This document shows positions 5,929 through 35,300 of a stretch of 64,000 bases of DNA, piece after piece (position 1 is the stretch's first letter; each line of letters starts with the position of its first letter). The stretch lies in contig DASYUI010000035.1 of assembly GCA_036001425.1 (NCBI GenBank), positions 1,756 to 65,755 on the forward strand, given 5' to 3'. The translations under genes were made by a program, and so were the position numbers. The notes under the pieces are model-generated. The model was not told the origin of the DNA. It saw nothing but the letters and a program-made list of their open reading frames with translations, and did no database searches. This DNA is from Actinomycetota bacterium (GTDB lineage: Bacteria > Actinomycetota > UBA4738 > CALAEC01).

Positions 5929-6084
5929 CCTCGTTCCCCCGATATCGACGCCGGACATTCCCGACCGTTCGCCAACGGCTCACGAAAATGGGCATTCCGA
6001 GTCTTGTCTTGGCCCACCCCCTTCTGGTACCGTGGCGCGGTTCTGTGGCCAGCTTGGTCAGCTAACCCGGAGGAAAGCCCGCCC

Positions 6085-19706: not shown

Positions 19707-20125
19707 GATCCCCCCGGTGCACCACCGGCCACATCGACCGTGAACTCATGCTCGCAGGAGGGGCACGTCACGGTGGCCCGTGTGTGCCCCTCCTGGTTGA
19801 TCCGTCGATACAGGTCCTGCAGGAACGCCAGGTCGGAGGCGAACAGACCTTCGATCGTGGCCGGCGTCACCTCCCGGAGGTCGCCGAGCTGCGTGACCAC
19901 CCGGGACAGAAGGAGCACCGTGAGGTACGCCTCGTTGTCGCGAACCCTCGGGTCCCGGAGCGGGAGAATCTCGTCCCGTGCCGTGGCCAAGCGGATGACA
20001 CCCCGCTTGTGCGTGGTCCCCGAGTCGTCCGTGTACCCGATGGGTAGCTCGAACTCGAACTCCGTCCGTACGGCCTCGCCACGCGATTCCCGGCCGGCCA
20101 CCTCCGCTGGGCTCGGCGCTCTCAT
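19703..20125 (-). CDS. tail-assembly-chaperone-like protein (gpE/gpG position) with C-terminal CxxC
   Basis: 'FEFELPIGYTDDSGTTHKRGVIRLATARDEILPLRDPRVRDNEAYLTVLLLSRVVTQLG...TVTCPSCEHEF'. Sits directly after the tube gene and before the tape-measure-like gene. Its ATG overlaps the tube stop (ATGA at 20122-20125). Confidence 0.7.
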   Translation of the reverse strand: MRAPSPAEVAGRESRGEAVRTEFEFELPIGYTDDSGTTHKRGVIRLATARDEILPLRDPRVRDNEAYLTVLLLSRVVTQLGDLREVTPATIEGLFASDLAFLQDLYRRINQEGHTRATVTCPSCEHEFTVDVAGGAPGGS

Positions 20126-20571
20126 GCGGGAGCGAGTCCTTCGTGGACGATGGTGCACTCCTCGACGAGGATGTCGTTCCCCGAAGCCGAGAGCGCACCG
20201 ATGCTCACCTTTGACGGCCAGCCGTTCACGAAGTTGAACCGGCCCACCTCGCCTCTGGCGTAGTCGTACAGGACCACCGAGCCGTTCCTGCGGGCGGTCT
20301 CGATGTTCCCGTCCTGGACCTCCTTGATCCAGTCCCAGAGGGCCTTGTCGTTCGTCTTCCCGTGCTTGAGCGTGATGGGCCCGAACTTCTTCGCCCCGGG
20401 GAGCTGCTTCATCAGGGCGAGACCGCCCAACTTGTTCTCCCGGTGCTCGATCACCTGGATCTCGGCCGAGAGACCGCTCACTTCCTTGAACTGGGCCATC
20501 GAGACGCCGTCGATCTCGATCTGGAAGGTATAACCAGCGACTGCGTCTCCTCCGGCGATATCAATTCCCAC
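20122..20571 (-). CDS. tail tube protein (Afp1-like, T4 gp19 family)
   Basis: 'YTFQIEIDGVSMAQFKEVSGLSAEIQVIEHRENKLGG...KQLPGAKKFGPITLKHGKTNDKALWDWIKEV'. Confidence 0.9.
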   Translation of the reverse strand: MGIDIAGGDAVAGYTFQIEIDGVSMAQFKEVSGLSAEIQVIEHRENKLGGLALMKQLPGAKKFGPITLKHGKTNDKALWDWIKEVQDGNIETARRNGSVVLYDYARGEVGRFNFVNGWPSKVSIGALSASGNDILVEECTIVHEGLAPA

Positions 20572-20617: not shown

Positions 20618-22153
20618 CTACTCCGACACCTCCGCGCCGCCCGAGAACTGGGCGAGACGGAACACCACGAACTCGGCCGGCTTGACCGGCGCGATGCCGA
20701 TCTCCACCGTGACCTGTCCGGCGTCCACCATGTCCGGGGGGTTGGTCTCCTCGTCGCACTTGACGAAGAAGGCCGCCTCCGGGGTGGCCCCGAACAGGGC
20801 CCCATCCCGCCACAGCCGGAGCAGGAAGGAGGTGATCGTCCGGCGGAGCCGGGCCCAGAGGTCCATGTCGTTCGGCTCGAACACGACCCACTGGGTGCCG
20901 AGCAGGATCGACTCCTCGATGTAGTTGAAGAGCCGACGGACGTTGATGTACCGCCATGCGGAATCGCTGGACAGGGTCCTCGCGCCCCACACCCTGATTC
21001 CCCGGCCGGGGAAGGCCCGGATGACGTTGACCCCGATGGGGTTCAGGAGGTCGTGCTCGGCCTTGGTGATATTGGTCTCGAGGGTGATCGCTCCCCTGAT
21101 GACCTCGTTCGCGGGAGCCTTGTGCACGCCCCGGGTGTCGTCGTTTCGGCCCCAGATACCGGCCAGGTGGCCGCTCGGTGGCACGAACGTGTTCTGTCCG
21201 CTGGCCGGGTCGAACACCTTGATCCACGGCCAGTACAGAACGGCGAACTTGGAGTCGTAGCCGGCCTTGTCGACCCGCCACTCGCGGATCTGCTGAGCGG
21301 TCAGGCCGGGCGGCGCGTCCAGGACCGCCATCCGGTCACCCATGTTCTCGCAGTGCGCGATCATGGCTAGCTGGACCGCCTGGAGCCCCTCGAGGTCGAT
21401 CATGCCCTTCTGGTAGGCGGCCATGAGGTCCGGGCAGGACACCATGGTCACCTCGTCGATGGCCTCTAGACCTCCGAGGCCCGTCCGGTCCGCGGCGTCG
21501 CCGACGTAGTCCTCGGGAGCGATCCGAGTGGGCGCAGGGGCCCCGCCGCCAGCCAGGCTGACCTTGCTGCCGGTGGCCGGCCGACGCTCCAGCGTGGAAG
21601 CCGAGCCCACCTCTTGGAGCTGGATGAGCTTCGACTCCGCGTTGACCACCGTGACGGCGTTCTGCTTTCCCTTCTTCGTCGTCAGGTTGTCGAAGGACTC
21701 CTCGACCTTGGTTCCCCGCTTCACGACGAGCTTGAAGGTCTCTTCCTTCTCACCTTCCGAGGCGTCCTGCACCTCGACGGTGAGGTCGTTGCCGGCGGTG
21801 CCCTCCTCCAGCGCGAGCACGCGGTAGGCCGACAGGTCTTCCTTGGCCCCGCTGGGCAGCTCGCCCCGGGCGGTGGGTGGGCCGGCGCCGTCCTGTCCTA
21901 CGCGGACCACGTACGCCGCGCCGCCGCCATTGTTGAAGTAGCCGTACACCGCGTGGGCCAGGTACGAGCCCTCGATGAAGTCACCGAAGGTCTGCGAGAA
22001 CTGGCTCCAGTTGGTGACCAGGGTCGGGGTGTTCACGGGTCCCTGCGCCGCCATCCCCGCGAACGCGGCGACGGCGGTCCCCACACCCTCGATCGGTCGA
22101 GACCCGGCCTCTACTTCCTCTACGTAGACGCCGGGCGACAAGTACTGAGGCAT
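20618..22153 (-). CDS. contractile tail sheath protein (Afp2-4-like)
   Basis: 'MPQYLSPGVYVEEVEAGSRPIEGVGTAVAAFAGMA' is the canonical sheath N-terminus. C-terminal 'GVNVIRAFPGRGIRVWGARTL'. RBS GGAGAGGAGG. Confidence 0.95.
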   Translation of the reverse strand: MPQYLSPGVYVEEVEAGSRPIEGVGTAVAAFAGMAAQGPVNTPTLVTNWSQFSQTFGDFIEGSYLAHAVYGYFNNGGGAAYVVRVGQDGAGPPTARGELPSGAKEDLSAYRVLALEEGTAGNDLTVEVQDASEGEKEETFKLVVKRGTKVEESFDNLTTKKGKQNAVTVVNAESKLIQLQEVGSASTLERRPATGSKVSLAGGGAPAPTRIAPEDYVGDAADRTGLGGLEAIDEVTMVSCPDLMAAYQKGMIDLEGLQAVQLAMIAHCENMGDRMAVLDAPPGLTAQQIREWRVDKAGYDSKFAVLYWPWIKVFDPASGQNTFVPPSGHLAGIWGRNDDTRGVHKAPANEVIRGAITLETNITKAEHDLLNPIGVNVIRAFPGRGIRVWGARTLSSDSAWRYINVRRLFNYIEESILLGTQWVVFEPNDMDLWARLRRTITSFLLRLWRDGALFGATPEAAFFVKCDEETNPPDMVDAGQVTVEIGIAPVKPAEFVVFRLAQFSGGAEVSE

Positions 22154-22248
22154 AGCGGTCCTCCTCTCCGGAAACCGTCCGTGCGCAGAGTCTCGCGTTG
22201 GAGGACCTGCTACTAGGTCCTACCGGGCGCGCCTACGGGTAGGAGTGG

Positions 22249-22329
22249 TTGCCCGAAGGAGTGGGCGGCCGCGTTCCCGAAGGGGAGACGGAATTGCCCG
22301 ATGAGCGGGTCGGGTTGCCCGAATGGGCA
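22249..22329. promoter_or_regulatory. array of TTGCCCGA-type direct repeats ending in the palindrome TGCCCGAATGGGCA, upstream of the sheath gene
   Basis: Plus-strand copies: TTGCCCGAAGG (22249), TTCCCGAAGG (22274), TTGCCCGATG (22294), TTGCCCGAATG (22315). Spacing is 25/20/21 bp. TGCCC-GAAT-GGGCA lies at 22316-22329. Confidence 0.5.
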
Positions 22330-22369
22330 GCGGGTGGACGTGAATCGTCTTCCCGCGGCCCTTCGGCCG

Positions 22370-23068
22370 TTACGTGGCGGCGGGTGCTTCCTCTTCTTCT
22401 TCTTCTTCGGTGGCCTCTTGGGTGGCGACTTCCTCTTCTTCCTCTTCCGCCTCGCGGCCCACCGGAGCAGTCTGGAGCTCTTCTTCCTCTTCCGCCTCGC
22501 GGCCCACCGACGCTCCCGCATCGCTCCGTGCGGTGACCCTGTCCGCTACCGCGCTCGCTTGCTGCTCGGAGGCGTCGCCGGGGTCGGAGACTTCGAGCTT
22601 CTGCGCAGGCGGGGCGTTCCGCTGCTGGACCACGTGGGTCAGCTCGTGCGCCAGGAGCTTGTCCCCGTCGCCGCTTCCCGGCTGGTACTCGCCGGAACGG
22701 AAGAAGATGTCCTGCCCCGTGGTGAAGGCCTTGGCCTTGACCGACCGTGACAGCGAGTCCGCCTCCGTGTCGTTGTGAACGCGCACGCCGGAGAAGTCCT
22801 CGCCCATGGTTCGCTCCATCTTCTGGCGAGACCCCTCATCCAGGGTCGAGCCCCCTCCTCGCTTGGACTGGATGGCCCGGGCGATGGTGTCGTCGACGTC
22901 CGCTCCCTTCGCCCCCTTCATCTGCACACGTAGCTTCGGAACCAGTCGCTGCATGGCCTGGTTTCCAAGACGGCCCTCGCCGCCGGTCGGGTCCTTCGAA
23001 CGCGCCGCCTCACCCTCGGCGGGCTTCCGCGAGGACTTCCGGACCTCGTCGATGTCGAACGAATCCAT
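22370..23068 (-). CDS. DUF4157 (eCIS core domain) zincin-like protein with intact HExxH and poly-Glu tail
   Basis: 'STLDEGSRQKMERTMGEDFSGVRVHNDTEADSLSRSVKAKAFTTGQDIFFRSGEY...LLAHELTHVVQQ'. The C-terminus carries 'VGREAEEEEE' twice and an EEEEEEE run. Confidence 0.85.
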   Translation of the reverse strand: MDSFDIDEVRKSSRKPAEGEAARSKDPTGGEGRLGNQAMQRLVPKLRVQMKGAKGADVDDTIARAIQSKRGGGSTLDEGSRQKMERTMGEDFSGVRVHNDTEADSLSRSVKAKAFTTGQDIFFRSGEYQPGSGDGDKLLAHELTHVVQQRNAPPAQKLEVSDPGDASEQQASAVADRVTARSDAGASVGREAEEEEELQTAPVGREAEEEEEEVATQEATEEEEEEEAPAAT

Positions 23069-23086: not shown

Positions 23087-25177
23087 CTACAGGCGCGGCG
23101 GGCCATCCAACGCCTCGCTTGTCGACACCAGGTGGAAATATGGTCCGAACTCCGCCTCCACGCACAACCGCCCGAGCTTGCGGTACTCGCGCTGGACCCC
23201 TCGGATGAGGTCCTCCACCGAAACGGATCTCTCCGCGTCCGCCGCCAGGTACGCAGCCGTGACGCAGATGTTCCGGATGTTCCCACCGGAGAATTCGAAG
23301 GACTTGGCCAGGAAATCGAGGTCCAGGTCTCCCTCCCTGGGGACCTCCGGGCTCAGGCACTTCTCCCACAGCGAACGGCGATGTCTCTCATCGGGCATGG
23401 GGAAGTCCACGATGACGTCGAGCCTTCGGGTGAACGCCTCGTCGAGGTTGGCCCTCAGGTTGGTGGCCAGGATGGCCATCCCCTCGAAGGTCTCCATCCG
23501 CTGCAGCAGGTATGCCACCTCGATGTTGGCGTAGCGGTCGTGGGCGTCCTTGACCTCGGACCTCTTTCCGAACAACGCGTCCGCCTCGTCGAAGAAGAGG
23601 ACGCCGTTGACACCCTCCGCCTCGGAGAAGATGCGTTCGAGGTTCTTCTCGGTCTCTCCGATGTACTTGTCCACCACGGTGGCCAGGTCGATCGTGTAGA
23701 GGTCCAGCCCGAGCTCGCCGGATAGCACCTCCGCGGCCATGGTCTTCCCGGTCCCGGACTCACCCGCGAACAGGGCCGTGATCCCCCCGCCCCGGCCGCC
23801 CCCCTTCCGCATCCCCCACTCCCCGAGGACGCGCTCCCGGTACCGCGCCCGGGCGGACAACTCGTGGAGGTGAGCGAGGGTATCGGCCGGGAGGACGATG
23901 TCTTGCCACCCAACCGCCGGCTCGATCCGGCGGGCCAGCCTCTCCAACCCAGCGGCGTTCTGGGCCCGGGCCCCCGCCCTGAGGTCGGTCGGGTCAATGG
24001 ATCGGCCGGCGTAGGAGGCTCGCAGGCGAGCGGCCGTGGCCGCCCTGGCCACCTGTTCGGGGCCGAGGCGGAAGGGGGTCATGACCGCCGCCGCGTCCAG
24101 CTCCTTCGGGGTGTCGCCGTCGAGGTGGGCCCGCCACATGCCGGCTCGCTCCTCCGGCCCGGGGAGGCCGACGTCGACGACCAGCGGGATCTCCCGTGAC
24201 CACATGGGGTCCCAGTTCCGTGTCCCGGTGATCACCACGGGCCAGGGGATCTCGGCGAATGCCCGCACGCCGAGCGCTCCGCGCTCCACGACCTGTTCGA
24301 CCGGCCCCACCACCAGACCAGCCCCTCGCAGGCCCGCCTCGCGCCCCGCCGCTGCGGCGATGGCGGTGGGGTCGTCGTCAACGGTCAGTCGAGCCAGGTC
24401 GAGGGCCAGCGTGGGGATCCCCATCCCGGCGAAGGCGGCCGCGGCAAGCCCTCGTCCCGCGCCCGCCAGCCGCTCCCGCAGGTAGCAGAGCCGCGCGCCC
24501 TCGGCGATGGCGCGAGCCAGGGCCTCCCCGTCTTGCTCGTCCCAGCTGATCGGAGAGGCCAGGAGTGTGGTGAGCGCGTGGTCGGGGCGGTCGTCGCCCA
24601 AGAGATGAGCCGCGACCCGGTCCGGGACCCGCAGGGTCCGCGTGAGGAACGGCCGATCGGGGTCCTCCACCAGGATGAGCCCCGCCTCGACCAGAGGGCT
24701 TCCCCCCTGTAGCCTTCGCCGGGCGCGGGCGTCGGCCGGTGAGGCTCCGCACAGTTCCAGAGACAGGCCCACGCTGGCCCGCCGGCGGGTCACGTCGTCG
24801 TGCAGATACCCGTAGAGGCGTTCGAACCGCGCGTCGAGGTCCGGCGCCAGCGAAACGAGGAGAAGCTCGGCATCGAGGGGCTCGAGATCGAAGGTCTTTG
24901 CCAGGCGCCGGAGCCGGATGTCCTCTCCCTCGGCCTCAGCGGTGTCGGCGGCCTTCTCCACGCGCGACAGGTCCTCGGCTGCCGCGGGATCGGGCGGGGG
25001 CGGTGGGGCCGGGGCATCCAGGAGCTGGTCGACCTGCTCTTCCGTGAGGTAGAGACCACGGAAGGGGTCGTCGGGTTCCGGGTCTCCGGCCCGGCGGCGG
25101 TTGACTGCCGCCTTCACGCGAGCCTCCACGACGGCCAAGCGACCCAGGAGGTGCTCGAGCGATGGAGACGGCTTCAT
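23087..25177 (-). CDS. AAA+ ATPase (Afp15-like)
   Basis: Walker A 'FAGESGTGKTMAAEVL', Walker B 'VLFFDEADALFGKR', and 'ILATNLRANLDEAFTRRLD'. ATG 25177 overlaps the DUF4255 stop (ATGA). The ORF-track extension to 25624 is Arg/Pro-rich, a frame artefact. Confidence 0.9.
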   Translation of the reverse strand: MKPSPSLEHLLGRLAVVEARVKAAVNRRRAGDPEPDDPFRGLYLTEEQVDQLLDAPAPPPPPDPAAAEDLSRVEKAADTAEAEGEDIRLRRLAKTFDLEPLDAELLLVSLAPDLDARFERLYGYLHDDVTRRRASVGLSLELCGASPADARARRRLQGGSPLVEAGLILVEDPDRPFLTRTLRVPDRVAAHLLGDDRPDHALTTLLASPISWDEQDGEALARAIAEGARLCYLRERLAGAGRGLAAAAFAGMGIPTLALDLARLTVDDDPTAIAAAAGREAGLRGAGLVVGPVEQVVERGALGVRAFAEIPWPVVITGTRNWDPMWSREIPLVVDVGLPGPEERAGMWRAHLDGDTPKELDAAAVMTPFRLGPEQVARAATAARLRASYAGRSIDPTDLRAGARAQNAAGLERLARRIEPAVGWQDIVLPADTLAHLHELSARARYRERVLGEWGMRKGGGRGGGITALFAGESGTGKTMAAEVLSGELGLDLYTIDLATVVDKYIGETEKNLERIFSEAEGVNGVLFFDEADALFGKRSEVKDAHDRYANIEVAYLLQRMETFEGMAILATNLRANLDEAFTRRLDVIVDFPMPDERHRRSLWEKCLSPEVPREGDLDLDFLAKSFEFSGGNIRNICVTAAYLAADAERSVSVEDLIRGVQREYRKLGRLCVEAEFGPYFHLVSTSEALDGPPRL

Positions 25178-25890
25178 CGGGAATCGCGGGAGCGGGTGCT
25201 CCTTCCGGCCTTCGCCTGCTTCCCGGCCGGCTTTCGCTCCTCTTCCTTCTCCTTCGTAGCGTCCCCGTTGCCGGACAAGGTGCGCTGCACCCGACCACCT
25301 GCCTGGTCTCGCGTGCCTTCTGGGCCGGCGAGCTTGACGACGGGCTCCGCGAGCACCGGCGGGCCCGCCTCGACCATCCGGCGGGGGTCGAACGGCGCGG
25401 TGATCACCAGGTCCAGTGAGGGCTTGAGCTCTCCGCCAAGTGCGGACCAGACGTCGGAGAGGTTTCGGTCCTTGGGGGGCGGCAGCCCCACCTGAGAGAT
25501 GACGGCCAGCGGCTGGTCGGCCAGCGATCCGACGAGCACGTCTCGAGGCAGCGCGTCGCGACGGAGGAAGCAGGTCAGCACCGCCGCAAGGAGCCGGTGC
25601 TCGTCCTCCGGACGCTGGGTCCACGCGGTGAGGAGATAGGAAAGCTTGAATCGCCGAGGAGGCGGCCGTCGTTCGGTCACCCGGCCGGTCTTGTCCCTGA
25701 TCTCCTCGTACTCGACCTGGCGCCGCTCGAGGTCCTCCCGGATGTCGTACAGGTAGACGCTGACCGTGGGACTGTTGCGGCGGGCCGCCCAGTCCTTCGT
25801 CGGCGCGTCGAACGTCACCTCGACGTCGGCGCCGTTCAGCGCCTCGCGCCGGATGAGGTTCCGGAGCGCCTCATCGACCTCGTGGATCAT
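25174..25890 (-). CDS. DUF4255 / Pvc16-Afp16-like tail terminator (cap) protein
   Basis: 'MIHEVDEALRNLIRREAL...VEVTFDAPTKDWAARRNSPTVSVYLYDIREDLERRQ...FKLSYLLTAWTQRPEDEHRLLAAVLTCF' is the typical Pvc16 N-terminal domain pattern. Confidence 0.85.
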   Translation of the reverse strand: MIHEVDEALRNLIRREALNGADVEVTFDAPTKDWAARRNSPTVSVYLYDIREDLERRQVEYEEIRDKTGRVTERRPPPRRFKLSYLLTAWTQRPEDEHRLLAAVLTCFLRRDALPRDVLVGSLADQPLAVISQVGLPPPKDRNLSDVWSALGGELKPSLDLVITAPFDPRRMVEAGPPVLAEPVVKLAGPEGTRDQAGGRVQRTLSGNGDATKEKEEERKPAGKQAKAGRSTRSRDSR

Positions 25891-25961
25891 GCGTCCCGAT
25901 GCTCCTCTCCGGCGCTGAGGGAAGCCACCCGCCCCGGTACATTCCTTGGTGCAGTTCCGCC

Positions 25962-25975
25962 TGCCCGTTGGGGCA
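25962..25975. promoter_or_regulatory. palindrome TGCCCGTTGGGGCA upstream of the first CIS gene
   Basis: TGCCC-N4-GGGCA lies 72-85 nt upstream of the DUF4255 start. The architecture is the same as TGCCCGAATGGGCA at 22316-22329. Confidence 0.45.
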
Positions 25976-25980
25976 TCGGT

Positions 25981-26009
25981 CGGCGCCCGGCAAAGAGGGC
26001 CGGGCGCCG
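25981..26009 (-). terminator. perfect 11-bp hairpin after the LuxR-family gene
   Basis: CGGCGCCCGGC-AAAGAGG-GCCGGGCGCCG lies 24 nt downstream of the stop at 26033. It has no U-tract, which fits the I-shaped type common in GC-rich genomes. Confidence 0.5.
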
Positions 26010-26032
26010 GACGGGTCCGCGCCGATCCGAGC

Positions 26033-26659
26033 CTAGATCAGTCCCTGCCGAAGTGCGAAGGCGACCGCGTGGGACCGGTTGCGCAGATGGAACCGGGTGG
26101 TGATGTCGTGGATGATGTTCTTGATCGTCCGCTCCGAGTACGCGAGCTGCTGGGCGATCTCCGCGGTGTCCATTCCTTCGGCCACGAGCTTCAGCACGCC
26201 GAGCTCCCGCTCGGTCAGGCCCGAGAAGGTAAGACCCCGAGGAGCCAGCACATGACGCTGGAGCCTGCCCACCTGAGACAGCAAGCGTCCCAAGAGGTCA
26301 GGTGGAACGGTGCCATCGCCCTGGGCGGCCGCGACCACTGCCCTGGTCAGGATCTCAGGCGTGGCTTCCGAGCGCCGAAGGAGCCCACAGGCGCCCGCCT
26401 CGACCGCCGCCACCAGGCCACCGTCGTCGGGCCGGGCCACGACCAGGACCACCCGAGGACCGCCGCTGCGCTGGATGGCCTTGATGACCCGAAGGGTCTC
26501 ATCGTCGACCTCGTCCGCGGCGACGACCGCGACATCGGCCTGGTCGACCTCGGTCTCGCTCAGGACTTCGAGCTCAGGGCGTCCGCGAAGCTCGGCCGCG
26601 ATCCCCGCCTGTGAGATCGGGTCTCGCGCATAGACGAACACGGGTACGCGCTCCGTCAT
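26033..26659 (-). CDS. LuxR/NarL-family regulator with degenerate (pseudo-)receiver domain
   Basis: C-terminal HTH 'LTERELGVLKLVAEGMDTAEIAQQLAYSERTIKNIIHDITTRFHL'. The N-terminal REC-like fold starts 'VFVYARDPIS', where NarL has 'LLIDDHP'. Confidence 0.85.
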   Translation of the reverse strand: MTERVPVFVYARDPISQAGIAAELRGRPELEVLSETEVDQADVAVVAADEVDDETLRVIKAIQRSGGPRVVLVVARPDDGGLVAAVEAGACGLLRRSEATPEILTRAVVAAAQGDGTVPPDLLGRLLSQVGRLQRHVLAPRGLTFSGLTERELGVLKLVAEGMDTAEIAQQLAYSERTIKNIIHDITTRFHLRNRSHAVAFALRQGLI

Positions 26660-26735
26660 TTCCCCTCCTCCTCCTGCTCAGGTCCGTCGGGCATCCTAGG
26701 AGGGCAATCTTTCCGGGCACTTCACCTGGGCTTAA

Positions 26736-26766
26736 CGGGCATGGGAAGTTGCCCGGATGTTCTCCT
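26736..26766 (+). promoter_or_regulatory. conserved element CGGGCA-N8-TGCCCGGATGTTCTCCT (copy A)
   Basis: 23 fixed positions are identical to copy B at 32185..32215. It lies in the divergent region between the LuxR gene and the 26814 operon. Confidence 0.5.
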
Positions 26767-26813: not shown

Positions 26814-28097
26814 GTGGGCGCGACTGCCATGCTGCGGCCGGCCACCATTCGCGTGGATCCTGGCGGAGAGACCAGCTTCGACATCAGCGTTCGAAACACT
26901 GGGACGATTGTCGATGAGTTCTCCTTCGAGATCCGCGGGGATCCGGCTCCCTGGGCCGAGGTCGAGCCGGGGGTCCTCCGGCTGTTCCCCGGCGCGGAGG
27001 GGATCGTCACGGTCAGGTTCCGCCCTCCACGGACGCCGACGACGCGGGGGGGTCTCACACCCTTCGGCGTGAAGGTCATCTCCAAGGAGGACCCCGAGGG
27101 CACGATCGTCGAAGAGGGGACCCTCGAGGTCGGCGAGTACAGCGACAACAACGTGGAGATGATCCCCCGGACCTCCCGCGGGCGGATGGGCGCCTCTCAC
27201 GACGTCTACATCGACAATCGCGGGAACCAGCGGGTCAGCACGACCATCGACGCCACCGATCCCGACGACAACCTCCAGTTCCAGATCAGCCCGCCGTCGA
27301 CGACGGTCGACCCGGGGAACGCCACTCGGGTGAGGGTCCGGGCCCAGCCGAAGAAGCGGTTCCTCCGAGGAGCGCCGAAGACACATCCGTTCAAGGTGAT
27401 CGTCCAGCCGGAGGGCGACCAGGCCCTCCAAGCCGACGGCACCATGCTTCAGGAGCCGCTGATCCCGAAGTGGCTCATCCCGGCGCTGCTCGCCCTGGCG
27501 GCGCTGGTGCTGATCTGGTTCTTCCTCCTCAAACCGGCGGTTGAGACGGCAGCTGTGAGCGCCGTCCCCAAGAACGTCGCCAAGAACGACGAACTGGCCG
27601 CCGCCGAGGAGCGGATGAACGAGGCTCTCGCAGCCCAGGCCGCGGCGGCCGAGAAGCAGGCCAAAGCATTGCAGAAGCAGATCGACGAGCTGGCGGGTGG
27701 GGCCGCGGCCGGCGAAACCAGCGACCAGCGACTCGACCCCAGCAACGAGGCGTTCCTGGACAAGAACAACTTCGAAGCGTCGTTCACCGTCCCCAAGGGC
27801 AAGACCCTCAAGATCACCGACCTGGTCCTGCAGAACCCCGCGGGAGCGACCGGACGAATCCTCATCATCCGTGATGATCTGGTGGATGACGCGAAGGACG
27901 CCACGCTCCTCGTGTCAGCTCTCGAGAACTTCCGAGACCTCGACTACCATTTCGTGACTGCGGTGGAGATCGGGGAGGGTCAGAACCTGCTGGTGAGGGT
28001 GACGTGCGACAAGCGCGCCGGACAGACAGTCGCCGAGGCCCAATCCGCCTGTAATCAGGCGGCCGTGTACTACACCGGTTCTCTGGCCAAGGCGTAG
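26814..28097 (+). CDS. bitopic membrane protein: two Ig-like (CARDB/NEW3-like) N-terminal domains, one TM, coiled coil + beta-rich C-terminal domain
   Basis: 'ATIRVDPGGETSFDISVRNTGTIVDEFSFEIRGDPAPWAEVEPGVLRLFPGAEGIVTVRFRPP' and 'VYIDNRGNQRVSTTIDATDPDDNLQFQISPPSTTVDPGNATRVRVRAQP'. TM 'WLIPALLALAALVLIWFFLL'. There is no N-terminal signal peptide, so the N-terminus is probably cytoplasmic. GTG start; ATG 26829 is an alternative. Confidence 0.8.
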   Translation: MGATAMLRPATIRVDPGGETSFDISVRNTGTIVDEFSFEIRGDPAPWAEVEPGVLRLFPGAEGIVTVRFRPPRTPTTRGGLTPFGVKVISKEDPEGTIVEEGTLEVGEYSDNNVEMIPRTSRGRMGASHDVYIDNRGNQRVSTTIDATDPDDNLQFQISPPSTTVDPGNATRVRVRAQPKKRFLRGAPKTHPFKVIVQPEGDQALQADGTMLQEPLIPKWLIPALLALAALVLIWFFLLKPAVETAAVSAVPKNVAKNDELAAAEERMNEALAAQAAAAEKQAKALQKQIDELAGGAAAGETSDQRLDPSNEAFLDKNNFEASFTVPKGKTLKITDLVLQNPAGATGRILIIRDDLVDDAKDATLLVSALENFRDLDYHFVTAVEIGEGQNLLVRVTCDKRAGQTVAEAQSACNQAAVYYTGSLAKA

Positions 28098-28099
28098 CC

Positions 28100-29731
28100 G
28101 TGCGGCTCCGCAGCCTCTCCCTTGCCCTCCTCCTCAGCGTCTTCCTAACCGGGCTGGGACTCCCGATGGCCGCGGCCGACCCATCCGATCCGACGCCCGA
28201 CCCAACACCGACTTCGGACCCGACCCCCAGCCCGGATCCCTCCACCGATCCGACCCCGGACCCCCAGCCGACCGTGACTCCGCCCGACGACGGTGGGGCG
28301 GGAGACAACCCTCCCCCCACGCCCCCTCCCGATCAGGACGGCAAGGACGGCAAGAGCGGCAAGGGGAAGCACGGCCAGAACGGCAACCGGGACGGGAAGC
28401 GGAAGAAGGATCCGTTCGCCATGGCCGGGCCGCAAAACACGGCCACGCTCGTGTCTCTGCTCGCCGAGCTGACCCAGCGGGGAATGTCCCTCGAGAAGGC
28501 CTTCCTCAAGGTGGTCGGACCCTTCCCCGTCGCGGGCCTGGCCTGGTGGAGCGACGACTGGCACGCGCCCCGGTGTTGCCCCTTCCCGCACCTCCATCAG
28601 GGCCTCGACATCTTCGCGCCGATGGGCACCCCCTTGGTAGCGGCGGCGGATGGGTACATCAGCCAGAAAGTCAATTCCCCCTCGGCTACAGGGTTCGGCC
28701 TCGAGGTCACCGACGCCCGGAACGTCCAGTACTTCTACGCGCACCTATCGGCCTTCGAACCGGGCATCGAGGTAGGAACCCACGTCGAGATGGGCCAGGT
28801 CATCGGGTACGTGGGTGACACCGGGAACGCCCGGGGGACCATCCCCCACGTGCACTTCGAGCGCCAGCCAGACGGCGTTCCGGCCCCGCCCAAGCCCTGG
28901 GTCGACCGGTGGCTCAGGATCGCCGAGCGGAAGGCCATGCTGCTCGTGCAGGAGGTCACGGGGAGGAAGCCCAAGGTGGAGCGCCTGACCTTCCGGCTCA
29001 CCAGACTGTTCGACCTGGTCGATGCGGAGCGCACCGACCTCGACGACGCGGCCACCGGGGACGCCGGGGAAATCCTCGTGCTGACCGGCCTCCATCCGGC
29101 TGCCACGTACGACATGGCTCGGGACACTGCCGGGGCCATGGCCTGGGAGATCGACTGGGGCGACGAGGCCGTCGACCAGATCGCCACCGGGATCAAGGCG
29201 TATCGGCAGGAGTTGACCGAGCAGACGCTCATGGGCATCCTCCACGATCCCGAAGAGGGGCAAACGGCGATCCCAGCGGGCGGGATGCTTCCCGGAAGCG
29301 AGGATGTGGGCCTGGCCGAAGGCATCGGCGATCCAATGGCACCCGTCGCCACGGAGAGCGGCGCACTGGTCAACGTGCCCTCCGTTCCCGGGGGCGTGAG
29401 CGCGCACGACGGGACCGGCACGGAGGGCAGCCTCCCTGTCGGCGCGCCGGGGGCCCCGGTCGCGTCGGGCAGCCAGGTCGCCGATACGGGCACCGGCTCT
29501 TCGGTTCCCTCGATCGGCAGGGAGAGCGACACGTCGAGCTCATGGAGGGCGGGTGTCGGGCCCGGCCTGGTCAGGGTCCTTGCCCTCTACAGTGCGTTCT
29601 CGACCGGGCTCCCGGGCATGACCCAGACCCTGTGGCACGAGATCCTGGCGGCGGTGCAGGATGAGGGCGCACGCGGCCTCCTGGGAAACGAGACCGAGGC
29701 CCAGTTCCCGGCCGCCGCAGGAAGGCCCTAG
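28100..29731 (+). CDS. secreted M23 family metallopeptidase
   Basis: Signal peptide 'MRLRSLSLALLLSVFLTGLGLPMAAA' and a DPTP-rich linker. M23 motifs 'HQGLDIFAPMGTPLVAAADG' and 'GDTGNARGTIPHVHFE'. The GTG lies 2 nt after the upstream stop. Confidence 0.9.
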   Translation: MRLRSLSLALLLSVFLTGLGLPMAAADPSDPTPDPTPTSDPTPSPDPSTDPTPDPQPTVTPPDDGGAGDNPPPTPPPDQDGKDGKSGKGKHGQNGNRDGKRKKDPFAMAGPQNTATLVSLLAELTQRGMSLEKAFLKVVGPFPVAGLAWWSDDWHAPRCCPFPHLHQGLDIFAPMGTPLVAAADGYISQKVNSPSATGFGLEVTDARNVQYFYAHLSAFEPGIEVGTHVEMGQVIGYVGDTGNARGTIPHVHFERQPDGVPAPPKPWVDRWLRIAERKAMLLVQEVTGRKPKVERLTFRLTRLFDLVDAERTDLDDAATGDAGEILVLTGLHPAATYDMARDTAGAMAWEIDWGDEAVDQIATGIKAYRQELTEQTLMGILHDPEEGQTAIPAGGMLPGSEDVGLAEGIGDPMAPVATESGALVNVPSVPGGVSAHDGTGTEGSLPVGAPGAPVASGSQVADTGTGSSVPSIGRESDTSSSWRAGVGPGLVRVLALYSAFSTGLPGMTQTLWHEILAAVQDEGARGLLGNETEAQFPAAAGRP

Positions 29732-29735
29732 TCGG

Positions 29736-31811
29736 CTACCGGTTCACGAACTTGGGCGGCTGCCCTGTCGCCGGAGTGACCATGAAGTCGGCTTCCGCGA
29801 GTACCCCGGGTCCCTTGGCGCGCAGGAGCCTCGGTCCGGTGATGTCATTGTGGAAGACCAGCACCTGGCCGACGATGTTCCCGTCGACATCCGACACGAT
29901 CTCGAACCGGCCGAGCCCTGGCTTCCACTTGAGGACGATCGTCCTCTCCGGCGGGAACAGGCTCCCCTCCACGAACGGCACGAACCCGGGTGGCCCGATG
30001 TTCGGGCTCAGGGATACGATCGGCTGGAAGCCGCCTCCCAGCAAGAGTGCGGTGTCCGCTGCCGGTGATTTCGCTCGAGTGACCGCGAACAGTGCCGAGC
30101 GGACCCCCGAGGCCTTCGGGCGGAACTGGACGCCGACGAAACACTCCTCCTCGGGATGGAGCCGCACGTTCGAGCAGCCGTCGGTGTGGATGATGAAGTC
30201 GCCGGGGTTACCGGGGCCCAGTACGTCGATGGAAGCGATAGTCACCGGCCCGTCTCCCTCGTTCGCCACGCTCACGAGCTGTTCCGGGCTGGTCGTGGTG
30301 ACGATCCGGGTGTCGAACTGGATGGGGATCGGATCGATCTGGACGGTCGGCTGACGGTCGCGCACGAAGACGTCCTGGACATCGTTCCTGTCGCATCCCG
30401 CGTCGCAGATTCCGTCTTCGTTCGAGTCTTGTCCGATGAGATTCGATGCGGTCGACACGAAGGCCACGTACTGTCCGGAGTCCGAGGCCGCCGGATCACT
30501 ATTCACGCTCCGCGGGGGGGTCTCGTCGCCGTCGGCGCTGATGGAGACTCGGTTGGTCCGGCCAACGAACTGGTCGCGGACGTAGACGTCCTGCGCTCGG
30601 TTCGTGTCTCCCCGCCGAAGGGTCGAAGCCAGGGACTCGAACGCCACGTATCGGCCATCCGCGGTCATGTCGGGGTCCGTGCTCCGACCGTTTCCCGGAT
30701 TCCCGTTGGAAGCCACCGAGGCCTTGATCGTCGTCTCCGCGCTCCGGTCACGGATGAAAATGTCCCGGACACCGGACGCTGGGAGCGTCTCCAGCAACGG
30801 GAGCATGTTCGTCGCGTCGCTGGCGAAGGCCACCCATCGACCGGCCGCGTCGATGGTGGGTTGGACGCTCGCGCCGTTGGCCTGGGCCTCGGAGGTGCTG
30901 ATCGACACCCGTGAGGTGCTCTGCGTCGCGAGGTCCCTCAAGTAGATATCGCTGACGTTGTTGGTATCTGCCCCGATGAGATTGGTTGCCGTGCTGCTGA
31001 AAGCCACGAGCTGGCCGTCGCCCGAAAGCGCGGGGTCCACGCTGTCGTCGTCGCCAGCGGCACCGCTGGCCCCCGACGCCCGCGACGCAAGCTGCGTATC
31101 CACCAACCCGGCCTCGTCGTAAACCCCGTCGAGATCGGTGTCCCGGTCCCTGACGAACACATCGAAGTTGTCGCTGGTCTTGGCGGGGTCGAGGTCGTCG
31201 GAGTTGCTCACGAAGGCCACGAACCGCCCGTCCGCCGAGAGGTCGGGCTGGGTGTTGGAGCTGGAAAACCTCCCGTCGTCGTCCACGGAGACCATCACCG
31301 TGGCCACGCCACGGGCCTCGTCGAAGGTGCCGTTCCGGTCCGTGTCCCGGTCGCGGACGTACACGTAGGGCCCCCCGCAAAACTCGGAGCAGTCGGGTAT
31401 GAAGTTGGTGGCCTCGGACACGAAGGCAACGAAGCGACCATCGGCGCTGATCGCTGGGGAGTTGGAGTCGCCGTTCCCCTGCTCTCCACTGGTCAATACG
31501 GAGACCCGGACGGTGGTCCCAGCCGTGATGTCCCGGACGAATACGTCCTCGACGCCGTTCGAGTCTTCGGGGACGAGATTCGACGCGTCCGTAGCGAACG
31601 CAACCCATTGGCCGCCCGCCGAGATCGCCGGCTGAGCGCTGCCCCGGTTGGCCTGGTCTTCATCGGAGGACAGGGAAGCCAGGAACGTCGTCCCGGGGCC
31701 CTCGGACCGTGCCTGGCTCACGAACAGGAGCGACGCCACCAGGGCCAGGACGAGCGGCAGTCCCATCCTGGCTCGCCGGGAAAGGGCGCGTTTCCGCTGG
31801 CCCGGGGGCAT
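29736..31811 (-). CDS. secreted PD40/TolB-like beta-propeller repeat protein with C-terminal Ig-like (choice-of-anchor-D-like) domain
   Basis: Repeated 'S.SADGR[FYW]VAF.S.A.NL...D.N...DV[FY][VL]RD' blocks. Signal-like 'RKRALSRRARMGLPLVLALVASLLFVSQA'. Start is ambiguous (31766, 31811, 31886 or 31907). Confidence 0.85.
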   Translation of the reverse strand: MPPGQRKRALSRRARMGLPLVLALVASLLFVSQARSEGPGTTFLASLSSDEDQANRGSAQPAISAGGQWVAFATDASNLVPEDSNGVEDVFVRDITAGTTVRVSVLTSGEQGNGDSNSPAISADGRFVAFVSEATNFIPDCSEFCGGPYVYVRDRDTDRNGTFDEARGVATVMVSVDDDGRFSSSNTQPDLSADGRFVAFVSNSDDLDPAKTSDNFDVFVRDRDTDLDGVYDEAGLVDTQLASRASGASGAAGDDDSVDPALSGDGQLVAFSSTATNLIGADTNNVSDIYLRDLATQSTSRVSISTSEAQANGASVQPTIDAAGRWVAFASDATNMLPLLETLPASGVRDIFIRDRSAETTIKASVASNGNPGNGRSTDPDMTADGRYVAFESLASTLRRGDTNRAQDVYVRDQFVGRTNRVSISADGDETPPRSVNSDPAASDSGQYVAFVSTASNLIGQDSNEDGICDAGCDRNDVQDVFVRDRQPTVQIDPIPIQFDTRIVTTTSPEQLVSVANEGDGPVTIASIDVLGPGNPGDFIIHTDGCSNVRLHPEEECFVGVQFRPKASGVRSALFAVTRAKSPAADTALLLGGGFQPIVSLSPNIGPPGFVPFVEGSLFPPERTIVLKWKPGLGRFEIVSDVDGNIVGQVLVFHNDITGPRLLRAKGPGVLAEADFMVTPATGQPPKFVNR

Positions 31812-32094
31812 GCCTCCGGGCAGGGTGGAGCTGCCTTCGCCACGCGAAGGCCGGGATCCCTCGGTATGCGGGCCCATCAGGTCCATGCTCGCCGCAATGC
31901 CCCCCAACCCGGCAGAGGAGCCAGTGTAGCCCCTGGGGCAAGGGCCGGTTCCCCATGGGGCAGGTCAACCCTCGGCCGGATCGTGCTCAGCACGCCGCCG
32001 AAGGCGACCCGGTGATCGCCCAACACCCAGAGGTCACGGCTCCGTTATCCCGTCCCCGATGGGACGAGGTGATCAACTTAGTCATATCGGGCTA

Positions 32095-32123: not shown

Positions 32124-32184
32124 CGTCTTTCCGACCTGGCCACCTGAATGAGTCATTCATCGCTCGCGTCTCCGGATGTCCGAA

Positions 32185-32215
32185 CGGGCAGCGCTTCCTG
32201 CCCGGATGTTCTCCT
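32185..32215 (+). promoter_or_regulatory. conserved element CGGGCA-N8-TGCCCGGATGTTCTCCT (copy B)
   Basis: Identical arms, 8-nt spacer and 17-mer as copy A. An extra CCGGATGTC lies 30 nt upstream (32172-32180). Confidence 0.5.
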
Positions 32216-32378: not shown

Positions 32379-35300
32379 ATGGCTCTCAGTCACAGGCTCC
32401 GCTCTTCTGGACGCACCCGTCTGGTTGCCGGCTTGGTCGTCACAGCAGCGGCCTTGGCCTATTCCCTGATCCTTGCTCCACGGGCATTCGCCGTCAGCAG
32501 CTGCAGCAACGATGGTGCCGGCAACCTCTTCGTGATCCTCAATGCGGCTGGTGACGACGCCAGGGTCGTGCTGCTCGCCGGGACCATCCAGGTCTTCGAC
32601 GCTCCGGCTGCAGACGGTACGGGCGGCACGCTGCTCGCATGTGGAGGAGCGACTCCCACCACGTCCAACATCAACACCATTCACTTCGTGTATGGGGGCG
32701 GGAACGGGGGGGACGAGCTCGTCTCCATCGACATGTCGGGCGGGGCCTTCCTCGACGCCACACCAGTCGGAGAGGGCGATCTCACTGAGGAGATCGAGTT
32801 CAACGTTCCCGACATGGGTCTGGGGGCCGACGCCCTCGTCATCATCGGCGGGGCGGGAGCTGACCGGATCACATTCGGAGCCGCGGGCATCAACCCGAAC
32901 ACCGATGCGAGCCCTCCTCCTCCGCCCTCTCCCCCCGACGACTCTGACGTGGACATCTTCCTGGCCAGCCCAGCCAATACCGAGACACACCGTGTGGACG
33001 CGGGGGCGGGCGCGGACGTCATAAGCGGCGCCGGAGACGCGGTTACGGGAGGCGCCTTCGCTTCGCCGCTCACGTTCGACGGAGGGACCGCTAACGACAC
33101 GCTGACCGGTGGCACCGCGGCCGACAACCTGTCGGGTGCGGCAGGCGACGACACCCTCAACGGTGGAACCGGGGCCGACACGCTCTCCGGAGGAGACAAC
33201 AACGACACCATCAGCGGCGGCGACGGCGCGGACGTCCTCGATGGGGGGAACGGCGACGACGACCTTACGGGGAACGAGCAAAACGATGCCATCGATGGGA
33301 GCGCCGGCGACGACGATCTGACTGGCGGTAACGGCGACGACACCCTCGACGGGGGGGCGGACGCCGACACGGTCAACGGTAGCGATGGGATAGACGTCCT
33401 CAGCGGAGGATCGGGGGGCGACACCGTTTCCGGAGGACCGGGCAACGACACCCTGGCCGGAGGACCGGGCAACGACACCCTGGCCGGTGGCGGCGACAAC
33501 GATACCGGCGATTACTCCGCCGCAGCGGGAGCGGTGACGGTCAACCTGACCACCGGTGTCGGTACGGGCGAGGGCGCCGACACGCTGACGGAGATAGAGA
33601 ACCTGACCGGCTCGGCCTTCGCCGACTCCCTCACCGGGGACAACAGCGTTGCGATCGGCAACCTGCTCCAGGGGGGCGCGGGCAACGACACCCTCGACGG
33701 AGCCGCCGGCACCGACAACGTGTCGGGAGGTTCCGGGAACGACACGCTCGACGGTGGTCTCGGGGCCGACACCTTCGCCGGGGGCTCCGAAACCGATACC
33801 GCTACCTATGCGGCCCGGGTGGCCACGGTATTCGTATCACTCGACGGCTCCCCCAACGACGGAGAAGCCCTTGAGGCTGACAACGTTGGGCTGGACATCG
33901 AACGAGTCGTCGGCGGCAGCGGCGACGACGAGCTGACCGGCGGAAGTGGCAACGACACGCTGGAGGGAGGACCGGGCCAGGACACGCTCGTGGGAGGAGC
34001 GGGTAACGACAGCTTCGACGGCGGCACCGGACTGGAAGACAAAGCCGACTACAACGCCGCCACCGGTTCAGTCACGGTGGACCTCTCCTTGGGAACCGCC
34101 AGCGGACAGGGCTCCGACACGCTTAGCGCCGTCGAAAACGTAACGGGTTCTCCCTTCGCCGACACTCTTGTCGGCGACAGTGTCGCCAATGACCTGTTGG
34201 GCGATGCCGGCAACGACACGCTGGTCGGCAGAGCGGGGAACGACGGCCTCGACGGAGGCCTCGGCACCGACACCGTCGACTACTCCTCTGCCGGGGGGGT
34301 CACGGTCAATCTGGCGACCGGGACCTCAACAGGCGACGGCGCGGACACCTTGACCTTGATTGAGAACGTCACCGGGTCTCCGGCCGACGATGTGATCACC
34401 AGCGACAACCTCACGACCAACACCAATCTTCTCTCCGCTGGGAACGGAAACGATGCCGTCGCTGGTGGCGATGGGGTGGAGATCATCCTCGGAGGAGCCG
34501 GCAACGACGTGCTCAGCGGCGGGGCCGAGAACGACAACATCGACGGCGAGCAAGGCCTTGACACTATGAACGGAGGCTTGGGTAACGATTCACTGGACGG
34601 TGGCGACGGCAACGACTCTCTGACAGGCGGAGCGGGCGACGACCCCCTCGACGGCGGCGCCGGAACCGACACGGCGTTCTACTCAGGCGCTGGAGCCCCG
34701 GTGAACGTGAACCTGGCCGCCGGAACGGCAACGGGCGGCGACGGGACCGACTCCCTCTCCCTGATCGAGAACGTAACCGGCTCTACCTTCGGCGACACCC
34801 TGACTGGCGACGGAGGGAACAACCTCCTTGCTGGAGGTGCGGGTGCCGACAACATGTCCGGGGCTGACGGCGACGATAGCCTCAACGGAGGACCGGGCCC
34901 CGACACCATGGACGGCGGAAACGGCGCCGACAGCCTCAACGGAGACACCGAGAATGACACACTGGTCGGCGGCGCCGGGAACGACTCTCTCGTCGGCGGG
35001 CTGCATATCGATTTCGCCGACTACTCGGGCTCCTCCTCTCCCATGACCGTGAATCTCGGGGCCGGGTCCGCTACCGGACAAGGAACGGACACGCTCGCCG
35101 GCGTCGAGAATGTCCTGGGTTCCGCCTTCGACGATGTCATCACCGGTGACGGACTGGGGAACGAACTCTCCTCCCTTGGCGGTAACGACGTCGTGGCGGG
35201 GGCCCTGGGCAACGACACGCTCTCCGGTGGCGGCGGAATCGATAATGTCGATTTCTCACCTTCGGCCACCCCAGTCACGGTCAACCTTGGGGCGGGGTCC

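Follow-up and report, generated by a model that had tools for sequence, protein, structure and literature searches.

A long gap precedes the sheath gene of a contractile injection system cluster

We analysed a 64,000-nucleotide stretch of an Actinomycetota genome (GenBank assembly GCA_036001425.1, contig DASYUI010000035.1, positions 1,756 to 65,755 of the forward strand), referred to below as the window. The window has a G+C content of 68%, and Pfam searches identify in it a minus-strand contractile injection system (CIS; eCIS for the extracellular type) cluster. The subject of this study is the gap between two genes of that cluster, those for the eCIS_core protein and for the sheath, in which an array of short repeats stands ahead of promoter-like elements. 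The genes of the cluster and the gap itself are as follows.

26033–26659, minus strand: LuxR/GerE regulator gene (Pfam GerE; 208 aa)
25174–25890, minus strand: Pvc16_N protein gene (Pfam)
23087–25624, minus strand: winged-helix and AAA ATPase gene (Pfam; open reading frame (ORF) as listed by program)
22370–23068, minus strand: eCIS_core (DUF4157) protein gene, 232 aa (Pfam)
22154–22369: 216-nt gap between the eCIS_core and sheath genes
20618–22153, minus strand: sheath gene (Pfam Phage_sheath_1 and Phage_sheath_1C), first of the unit that the predicted promoter would serve
20122–20571, minus strand: tube gene
down to about 8981, minus strand: more tube, spike and baseplate genes
6004–8994, plus strand: STAND-NTPase/Trans_reg_C/BTAD (SARP-type) gene, 996 aa

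No gap in the minus-strand operon is longer than the 216 nt ahead of the sheath gene. The original prediction, made from the sequence of the window, had called it the only long gap; a second gap of note, 142 nt long, follows the LuxR gene (25891–26032) and contains the same palindrome. An exact-protein lookup with the sheath protein of the window gave no record. When the cluster was compared with plasmids by megablast, matches fell only within the sheath gene (75%), and a scan of viral contigs for relatives returned nothing. For comparison, 170 related loci (given L numbers below) were fetched with flanks of 6–10 kb.

The gap contains phased half-sites and a perfect dyad

The sites and promoter-like elements within the gap are listed here from the distal end towards the sheath gene. 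L081 is the closest relative among the fetched loci.

22316–22329, minus strand: site A, distal perfect dyad TGCCCATTCGGGCA; kept in L081 as TGCCCCTTTGGGCA at equal offset
22294–22301, minus strand: site B, half-site TCGGGCAA, 21 nt from site A, without a recognisable left arm
22274–22287, minus strand: site C, degenerate dyad CTCCCCTTCGGGAA (the TTCCCGAAGG copy), 21 nt from site B
22250–22258, minus strand: site D, proximal half-site CTTCGGGCA, at the canonical family position
22237–22242, minus strand: CTACCC box (family CT(T/A)CCC, columns +12 to +17), 7 nt after GGGCA
22210–22215, minus strand: −35-like hexamer TAGTAG (family TTGTCC, columns +39 to +44; TTGTAG in L081)
22187–22192, minus strand: −10-like hexamer GACTCT (family GACGCT/GAGCGT), 17 nt after the −35-like hexamer
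22178–22182, minus strand: predicted transcription start, about 22180, placed from the −10-like hexamer; 5' untranslated region of about 27 nt
22159–22169, minus strand: putative sheath ribosome-binding site GGAGAGGAGGA, from its sequence

Four same-strand copies of a repeat had been predicted, roughly two helical turns apart and with a TGCCC-N4-GGGCA palindrome at the last of them, and all of these were found. On the plus strand the repeat TTGCCCGA begins at 22249, 22294 and 22315, a variant, TTCCCGAAGG, begins at 22274, and the palindrome TGCCCGAATGGGCA occupies 22316–22329. Read in the direction of the genes, on the minus strand, these become (C/A)TTCGGGCAA for the repeat and TGCCCATTCGGGCA for the palindrome, and the right arm of this site A is the first of four same-strand GGGCA-type half-sites. 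With the copies aligned on their CCC core, the steps measured from 22249 outward are 24, 21 and 21 nt, which does correspond to about two helical turns. Site C, the copy at 22274, is a degenerate dyad, CTCCCcttcGGGAA. The GGGCA of site D begins 101 nt upstream of the sheath ATG and provides the anchor column of the family alignment described below.

It had also been argued that three exact copies of one 8-mer within 75 bp could not be due to chance. Four occurrences of the 8-mer were counted in the window, three of them in the gap, with about 2.5 expected per window. Triples of this kind are common: Markov-3 simulations gave 0.51 cases per 64 kb of an 8-mer found three times inside 75 nt, and 40% of the simulated windows had one or more. 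Observed post hoc, the 8-mer cluster is weak evidence, and after these simulations we dropped in-window 8-mer statistics as proof of function. The exact dyad TGCCC-N4-GGGCA, present twice in 64 kb against 0.08 expected (0/100 shuffles reach two), is better evidence than the 8-mer, and conservation across loci is decisive.

Two hairpins, GGACCT-N6-AGGTCC (22203–22220) and CCTACC-N13-GGTAGG (22219–22243), are present where they had been reported, and they overlap the −35-like hexamer and spacer. Neither is kept in L081 or L082, the closest relatives. We saw no sign that they go beyond chance, and do not count them as part of the element.

The dyad is conserved upstream of related sheath genes

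The original prediction had proposed looking for the repeats in related loci, and there they proved to be conserved. Counts were made on non-redundant loci, with near-duplicates removed, that have a sheath at least 62% identical to that of the window (n = 63). An exact dyad lies 95–140 nt upstream of the sheath ATG in 38 of the 63, where 0.0011 would be expected per 46-nt interval, and 56/63 have a dyad with no more than one mismatch in the same interval. In most loci of this group the exact dyad falls 105–134 nt before the sheath ATG. Among more distant loci (less than 62% sheath identity) it is present in just 1/41. The spacer is N4 in every case, although N3 to N6 were permitted in the search. 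Across 43 non-redundant sequences the arms reach 90% invariance or more; in the right arm this is a consequence of the GGGCA anchor, by which the left arm is not constrained. An inverted repeat with such fixed spacing fits recognition by a dimeric helix-turn-helix (HTH) protein.

Dyad-bearing loci come from Chloroflexota/Limnocylindrales, Acidimicrobiia, other Actinomycetota, Georgenia and Amycolatopsis. The sheath gene of many Chloroflexota loci has a divergent pvc16 upstream, which places the module in a true promoter region. L081, whose sheath is 94% identical to that of the window, keeps all four repeats as the perfect dyad and three more cccttcGGGCA copies. Its GGGCA offsets are 0, −23, −45 and −66, compared to 0, −24, −45 and −66 in the window, and the sequence between the copies diverges. 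The counterpart of site B is thus a GGGCA at equal offset (−45 from the proximal site), and that of site C a GGGCA at −23. In L082 (sheath 81% identical), two copies and the promoter block are retained.

These comparisons bear directly on the reading that the repeats are a chance cluster or a local duplication without function. The frequency of post hoc 8-mer triples in simulations, given above, is in its favour, but the position-specific conservation in several phyla, the preservation of repeats but not spacers in L081 and an independent profile match (below) already contradict it. We therefore regard this reading as extremely improbable.

Conservation also bears on a role in RNA, in which the palindromes, as stem-loops between cistrons, would serve in termination, processing or stabilisation of the sheath mRNA. 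The gap RNA does fold better than shuffled sequences (z = −3.0; 1/200 shuffles as good) and contains several short G+C-rich hairpins, one of them right after the upstream stop codon. However, the equivalent region of L081 reaches z = −1.0 with a different fold, and the two hairpins described above are lost in this closest relative. Furthermore, there are zero compensatory changes in the five dyad pairs (43 sequences), the arms are invariant across phyla, many sites are lone half-sites, and loci with a divergent upstream gene have the element ahead of the promoter, outside the transcript. A terminator consensus scan of the gap detected no terminator-like site, and an Rfam scan of the gap detected nothing near the gathering score (best E = 0.18), its output being sub-threshold miRNA/sRNA noise. 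With the fold not kept in L081 and no covariation in the dyad, we rejected the RNA reading as very unlikely. Because the arms are invariant without compensatory changes, the pattern points to recognition of DNA by a protein.

Not all injection-system loci share the motif. No canonical dyad was found upstream of the sheath gene in the Streptomycetaceae plasmid loci L165–L167, and L167 has one near-dyad after its LuxR gene; judged from these sequences, the motif is diverged or different in that lineage. A distant clade of Dehalococcoidia loci (L053, L057–L061, L066, L069, L070 and L072) is without TGCCC-N4-GGGCA. These loci have another conserved inverted repeat, TTGTCCC-N14-GGGACAA, about 60–90 nt upstream of the sheath gene.

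A predicted promoter lies downstream of the sites

An ungapped alignment of 50 non-redundant sequences, anchored on the proximal GGGCA, shows GGGCA 96–109 nt from the sheath ATG in most loci and a series of blocks downstream of it: CT(T/A)CCC at +12, (C/G)TTGTCC at +37 to +44, a 17-nt spacer, GACGCT/GAGCGT, and then about 33 nt to the ATG. The window reads GGGCA (22254–22250)-aaccact-CTACCC (22242–22237)...TAGTAG (22215–22210)-N17-GACTCT (22192–22187). The CTACCC box is invariant among the window, L081 and L082, and it resembles a further TNCCC half-site. A2 and T6, the two most conserved positions of −10 elements, are kept in the −10-like hexamer. Across the family, TTG at column 38/39 followed by N17–18 and NANNNT is found in 27/52 non-redundant loci.

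We also built a profile hidden Markov model from 43 loci, leaving out the window, L081, L082 and L085, and searched the window with nhmmer. The best match in the 64 kb is 22258–22186 (E = 5.9e-5), which starts at site D. The next matches are to other intergenic dyads, at 32177–32209 (E = 0.015, second best), at 25975–25898 (model positions 6–83) and at the distal dyad. A sigma-54-type reading of GGGCA-N7-CTTCCC was set aside, since neither its spacing nor its GC dinucleotide matches such promoters.

Taken together, these data indicate that the gap is very probably a conserved protein-binding promoter module. The internal regulated promoter or operator that had been predicted is upheld to that extent, with a conserved module, fixed distances to the sheath ATG and occurrence in divergent promoter regions; the hairpins and the SARP-type binder that had been attached to it are not.

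A LuxR-type protein as candidate binder

Two proteins had been named as possible binders, the adjacent LuxR-family protein and the SARP-type regulator. The first remains a good candidate, as the core of the element is an inverted repeat and homologues of the protein are syntenic across phyla. The 208-aa LuxR protein (26033–26659) aligns with NCBIfam NarL over residues 54–203 and has a GerE HTH (Pfam), and its PDB matches, VraR, ChrA, DesR, NarL and DevR, cover most of its length. Members of the NarL/VraR/DevR family bind inverted repeats as dimers, often with binding to lone half-sites too. The receiver-like domain is without the usual acidic pocket (VYARDP), so that control of this protein by phosphorylation appears doubtful.

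Full-length homologues of the LuxR protein have 206–215 aa and 39–65% identity, with 52–65% in loci that have the canonical dyad. Their genes stand 4–5 kb before that of the sheath in loci of Chloroflexota, Acidimicrobiia and Actinomycetes, and GerE genes were also called in L168 and L170. Co-occurrence of dyad and LuxR gene was counted where 5.5 kb or more had been fetched upstream. Loci at or above 62% sheath identity divide into 19 with both, 25 with the dyad but no LuxR gene inside 6 kb, and two with the LuxR gene but no canonical dyad; below 62%, 19 loci have neither motif nor LuxR gene. In two loci whose LuxR homologues are more distant (about 40%), the dyad takes a variant form, TGCTCtttgGGGACA or TTCCCtttaGGGAA.

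On balance, we favour a model in which the LuxR-type regulator binds the sites in the gap and activates the sheath promoter. The gap would be an activator-dependent promoter for the sheath, tube and baseplate genes, with an array of operator sites ahead of it. Its core would be weak, as the −35 (TAGTAG) is poor and the −10 (GACTCT), 17 nt further on, is non-canonical, and transcription would start near 22180, leaving a leader of about 27 nt. The operator sites would lie on one face of the helix, with the proximal GGGCA at about −74, the CTACCC box at about −60, and three more sites in 21–24 nt steps ending at the perfect dyad TGCCC-N4-GGGCA at about −145. LuxR/GerE dimers may bind the dyad, spread cooperatively over the half-sites, and recruit or stabilise RNA polymerase. 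The structural genes, which are highly expressed, would in this way receive their own boost, independent of read-through from pvc16, the ATPase gene and eCIS_core. Other targets of the regulator would be the dyad ahead of pvc16 and, probably, the promoter of its own gene.

The same promoter module could be bound by another protein, either the 996-aa STAND-NTPase/SARP protein (6004–8994; OmpR-type winged helix and BTAD) or a host factor. The phased half-sites on one strand would then be direct repeats of SARP type. SARPs bind phased direct repeats, and the same-strand half-sites step by 21–24 nt in the window and L081 and lie at −22, −34, −45 and −66 across loci, close to multiples of 11 nt. 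A SARP-like gene is present near the L093 locus, a BTAD gene lies directly upstream of the S. clavuligerus sheath gene, and BTAD is a recurrent 'shell' domain of eCIS loci (PMC8213781). The conserved core is nevertheless an inverted repeat with a fixed N4 and not a direct heptamer. SARP sites abut or overlap the −35, with the 3'-most repeat about 8 bp from the −10, whereas the proximal GGGCA here is 39 nt, and the CTACCC box 22–27 nt, upstream of the −35-like hexamer, with no abutting. No SARP homologue was found in dyad-bearing loci within the fetched flanks, which end before the SARP position. We consider a different binder unlikely, and the SARP-type protein, in particular, is not supported by the geometry, there being no direct heptamers that abut the −35/−10.

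The SARP-type protein is unusual in its architecture, with an N-terminal MalT-like STAND NTPase (NCBIfam MalT, E = 7e-54), Trans_reg_C and a C-terminal BTAD. Codon 914 of its gene is TTA, a rare codon at 68% G+C. The LuxR gene of the window is without a TTA codon, unlike the TTA-containing sco4263 of S. coelicolor.

A further alternative is that the LuxR-type protein binds as a repressor or roadblock, limiting read-through or keeping the sheath promoter off. NarL-family proteins can repress, multi-site operator arrays are typical of repressors too, and the array takes up about 80 bp of the space separating the upstream gene from the promoter. However, the sites lie upstream of the −35/−10 elements and do not overlap them, and the −10 is non-canonical, as at activator-dependent promoters. 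In addition, loss of the regulator abolishes sheath transcription and the formation of particles in S. coelicolor and S. lividans (PMC2000904; PMC8505568). Repression seems quite unlikely.

Further dyads across the cluster

Additional dyads, near-dyads and half-sites occur upstream of other genes in the window.

25962–25975, minus strand: TGCCCCAACGGGCA, the other exact dyad of the window, starting 85 nt before the pvc16-like gene in the 142-nt gap that follows the LuxR gene
26715–26754, minus strand: half-sites GGGCA, TTCCC and TGCCC and a tandem GTTAAG-N5-GTGAAG, upstream of the LuxR gene
31949–31962, minus strand: TGCCCCATGGGGAA, a dyad with one mismatch, immediately ahead of the PD40-repeat gene (723 aa)
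32177–32190, no strand assigned: TGCCCGTTCGGACA, a dyad with one mismatch, between the divergent PD40 and RTX (2099 aa) genes

In L170 a dyad is placed likewise after the LuxR gene and upstream of pvc16. Extra exact dyads in related loci are almost only intergenic and adjoin cluster genes: they are found between the divergent LuxR gene and a conserved gene for a 427-aa protein, upstream of eCIS_core, and after the LuxR gene upstream of pvc16.

The half-sites upstream of the LuxR gene make autoregulation, together with a second motif, possible. This second motif is seen at 26720–26741 (minus strand) as a TGCCC half-site with the tandem GTTAAG-N5-GTGAAG (11-nt period) immediately after it. This arrangement, as GTTRAG-N5-GTTRAG, is also kept upstream of LuxR homologues from several phyla (L001, L005, L012, L018–L031, L093, L102, L168 and L170). 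The tandem may be the site of a second regulator, perhaps of OmpR or SARP type, or a pair of −35 elements. A 16-mer, GGAGAACATCCGGGCA, occurs twice on the minus strand, at 26750–26765 upstream of the LuxR gene and at 32199–32214 in the PD40/RTX divergent region. Each copy is followed by a TGCCCGTT... site, and the two look like paralogous promoter modules.

The gene for the 427-aa protein, which has an Ig-like (Cep192/HYDIN-type) domain, is divergent to the LuxR gene (26814–28097, plus strand). The pairing of these two genes is kept from Chloroflexota to Streptomyces, with homologues in 21 loci, and the Streptomyces annotation is 'hydrolytic protein'. In the window an M23 peptidase gene (28100–29731) comes after it. 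The RTX protein (32379–38678, plus strand) has 2099 aa and 40 matches to RTX calcium-binding repeats. The PD40 beta-propeller protein (29736–31907, minus strand) has 723 aa, and its gene, with the RTX gene, flanks the two near-perfect dyads. Both genes may belong to the injection system, as cargo or accessory genes, and share its control.

Some features of the genes between the LuxR gene and the gap should also be noted. The listed ATPase ORF (23087–25624) overlaps the Pvc16_N ORF (25174–25890) by 450 nt in another frame; by comparison with L170 and L168, in which the ATPase and pvc16 genes abut, the true start of the ATPase probably lies near 25177. The C-terminal tail of the eCIS_core protein is highly acidic and repetitive (EEEE..., encoded by GAAGAG repeats; 22376–22470, minus strand), and such a tail is also present in the actinobacterial relatives L035–L037, L040, L041 and L043. 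A short G+C hairpin without a U tract, CGGCC-GAAG-GGCCG (22353–22366, minus strand), stands right after the eCIS_core stop codon; L081 does not have this hairpin.

Comparison with known systems

The proposed arrangement resembles several known ones in part. NarL/FixJ operators (7-2-7 heptamer pairs and lone heptamers for NarL, a box with GGGAC half-sites for DosR/DevR) share with it a short G-rich half-site and a perfect inverted repeat with lone half-sites before an activator-dependent promoter, and a GerE-type HTH protein is encoded next door. The motif itself, TGCCC-N4-GGGCA, is unlike the NarL TACYYMT and the DosR boxes. The heptamer repeats of SARPs (ActII-ORF4, DnrI and AfsR) are likewise same-strand, phased by helical turns and placed upstream of a promoter, and a SARP-type gene is present in the window. 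In contrast to these, however, the core in the window is inverted, the repeats stand off the −35/−10, and the unit is not a TCGAGXX-type heptamer. Late-gene activators of contractile tails and tailocins, such as those acting at P2 Ogr/Delta sites and at the pyocin PrtN P-box, work from about −55 at sigma-70 promoters in Proteobacteria. They too have a dedicated activator site before tail structural operons, giving coordinated high expression, but their proteins and motifs are unrelated to those of the window.

Among eCIS loci, GerE has been named the first conserved regulator, and BTAD a shell domain, from gene neighbourhood alone (Geller et al. 2021, PMC8213781). The protein class is the same as that of our candidate, likewise encoded beside eCIS loci, and a role as master regulator was proposed for it in that study. 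That study (PMC8213781) concerned protein association only, without a cis-element or target promoter, whereas a candidate motif and candidate targets are supplied here.

The closest functional precedent is in Streptomyces. The S. coelicolor sheath gene SCO4253 has a single S1-mapped transcription start site (TSS) 32 nt upstream of its ATG (Hesketh et al. 2007, PMC2000904), and this TSS depends completely on the LuxR-family SCO4263 of the cluster (PMC2000904). Mutants of slpR form no particles (Nagakubo et al. 2021, PMC8505568). The SCO4263 (SlpR)-dependent SCO4253 promoter of the S. coelicolor/lividans CIS (SLP) is thus a sheath gene's own promoter inside the cluster, as predicted for the window, and its LuxR-family regulator is also encoded in the cluster. 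The sequence upstream of sco4253 (Vladimirov et al. 2023, Supplementary Fig. 7) contains TGCCCcaacGGCAC at −125, GGGCAA at −105 and TGCCCC at −93, followed at −44 to −39 by GAGGCT, a −10 of the NANNNT form. Counting on from GAGGCT, the seventh nucleotide is the mapped TSS, and these elements are in register with the family module. The two systems differ in that the S. coelicolor dyad is imperfect (TGCCCcaacGGCAC) and its profile match is not significant, and in the gene that precedes the sheath gene, which is divergent in S. coelicolor and co-directional in the window.

Several points weigh against a LuxR-controlled promoter in the gap. The −35-like hexamer of the window, TAGTAG, is degenerate, and a simple sigma-70 consensus scan found no promoter in the gap. 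Anchoring the alignment on GGGCA makes that column invariant by construction. No LuxR homologue was found within 6 kb in 25 dyad-bearing loci, although the gene may lie further off in these. Finally, SCO4263 is a protein of 1251 aa (PMC3282765) with AAA and LuxR domains (PMC3466318), compared to the 208-aa NarL-like protein of the window, and the family profile scores the S. coelicolor region at 4.8 bits only.

On account of its length, and with AAA and LuxR domains reported for it against a receiver-like domain and GerE in the LuxR protein of the window, we do not treat SCO4263 as an orthologue of the latter. Because of this length and the low profile score, the S. coelicolor precedent is one of analogy and not of orthology. 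It illustrates how such promoters work, and not that the same regulator is involved.

Implications

As a kind of element, the module is ordinary. The motif, its conservation across phyla and its use for regulon prediction appear to be new, and our literature search found no operator described for SCO4263 or for GerE/LuxR-type regulators of eCIS clusters. A broader proposal, which we put forward tentatively and regard as rather doubtful at present, is that TGCCC-N4-GGGCA is a cross-phylum 'CIS box', the operator of a GerE/NarL-type eCIS master regulator on every transcription unit of the cluster. If so, it would find unlinked or unannotated cargo and accessory genes, for example the PD40 (29736–31907) and RTX (32379–38678) genes. 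The regulator gene may then have a second tier of control through GTTRAG-N5-GTTRAG, maybe exerted by the STAND/SARP regulator, and the strength of sheath and tube expression would be tuned by how many phased half-sites a lineage has (four in that of the window, one to three in others).

The position-conserved motif and the promoter architecture described here provide a directly testable candidate binding site, and bear on how the contractile injection systems of Actinobacteria and Chloroflexota, extracellular and cytoplasmic, are switched on. Such a motif would permit prediction of the regulon, extending to effectors and cargo whose sequences are difficult to recognise, and would explain how the very abundant sheath and tube proteins are expressed above the upstream assembly genes. 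It would also give a handle for engineering the expression of particles.

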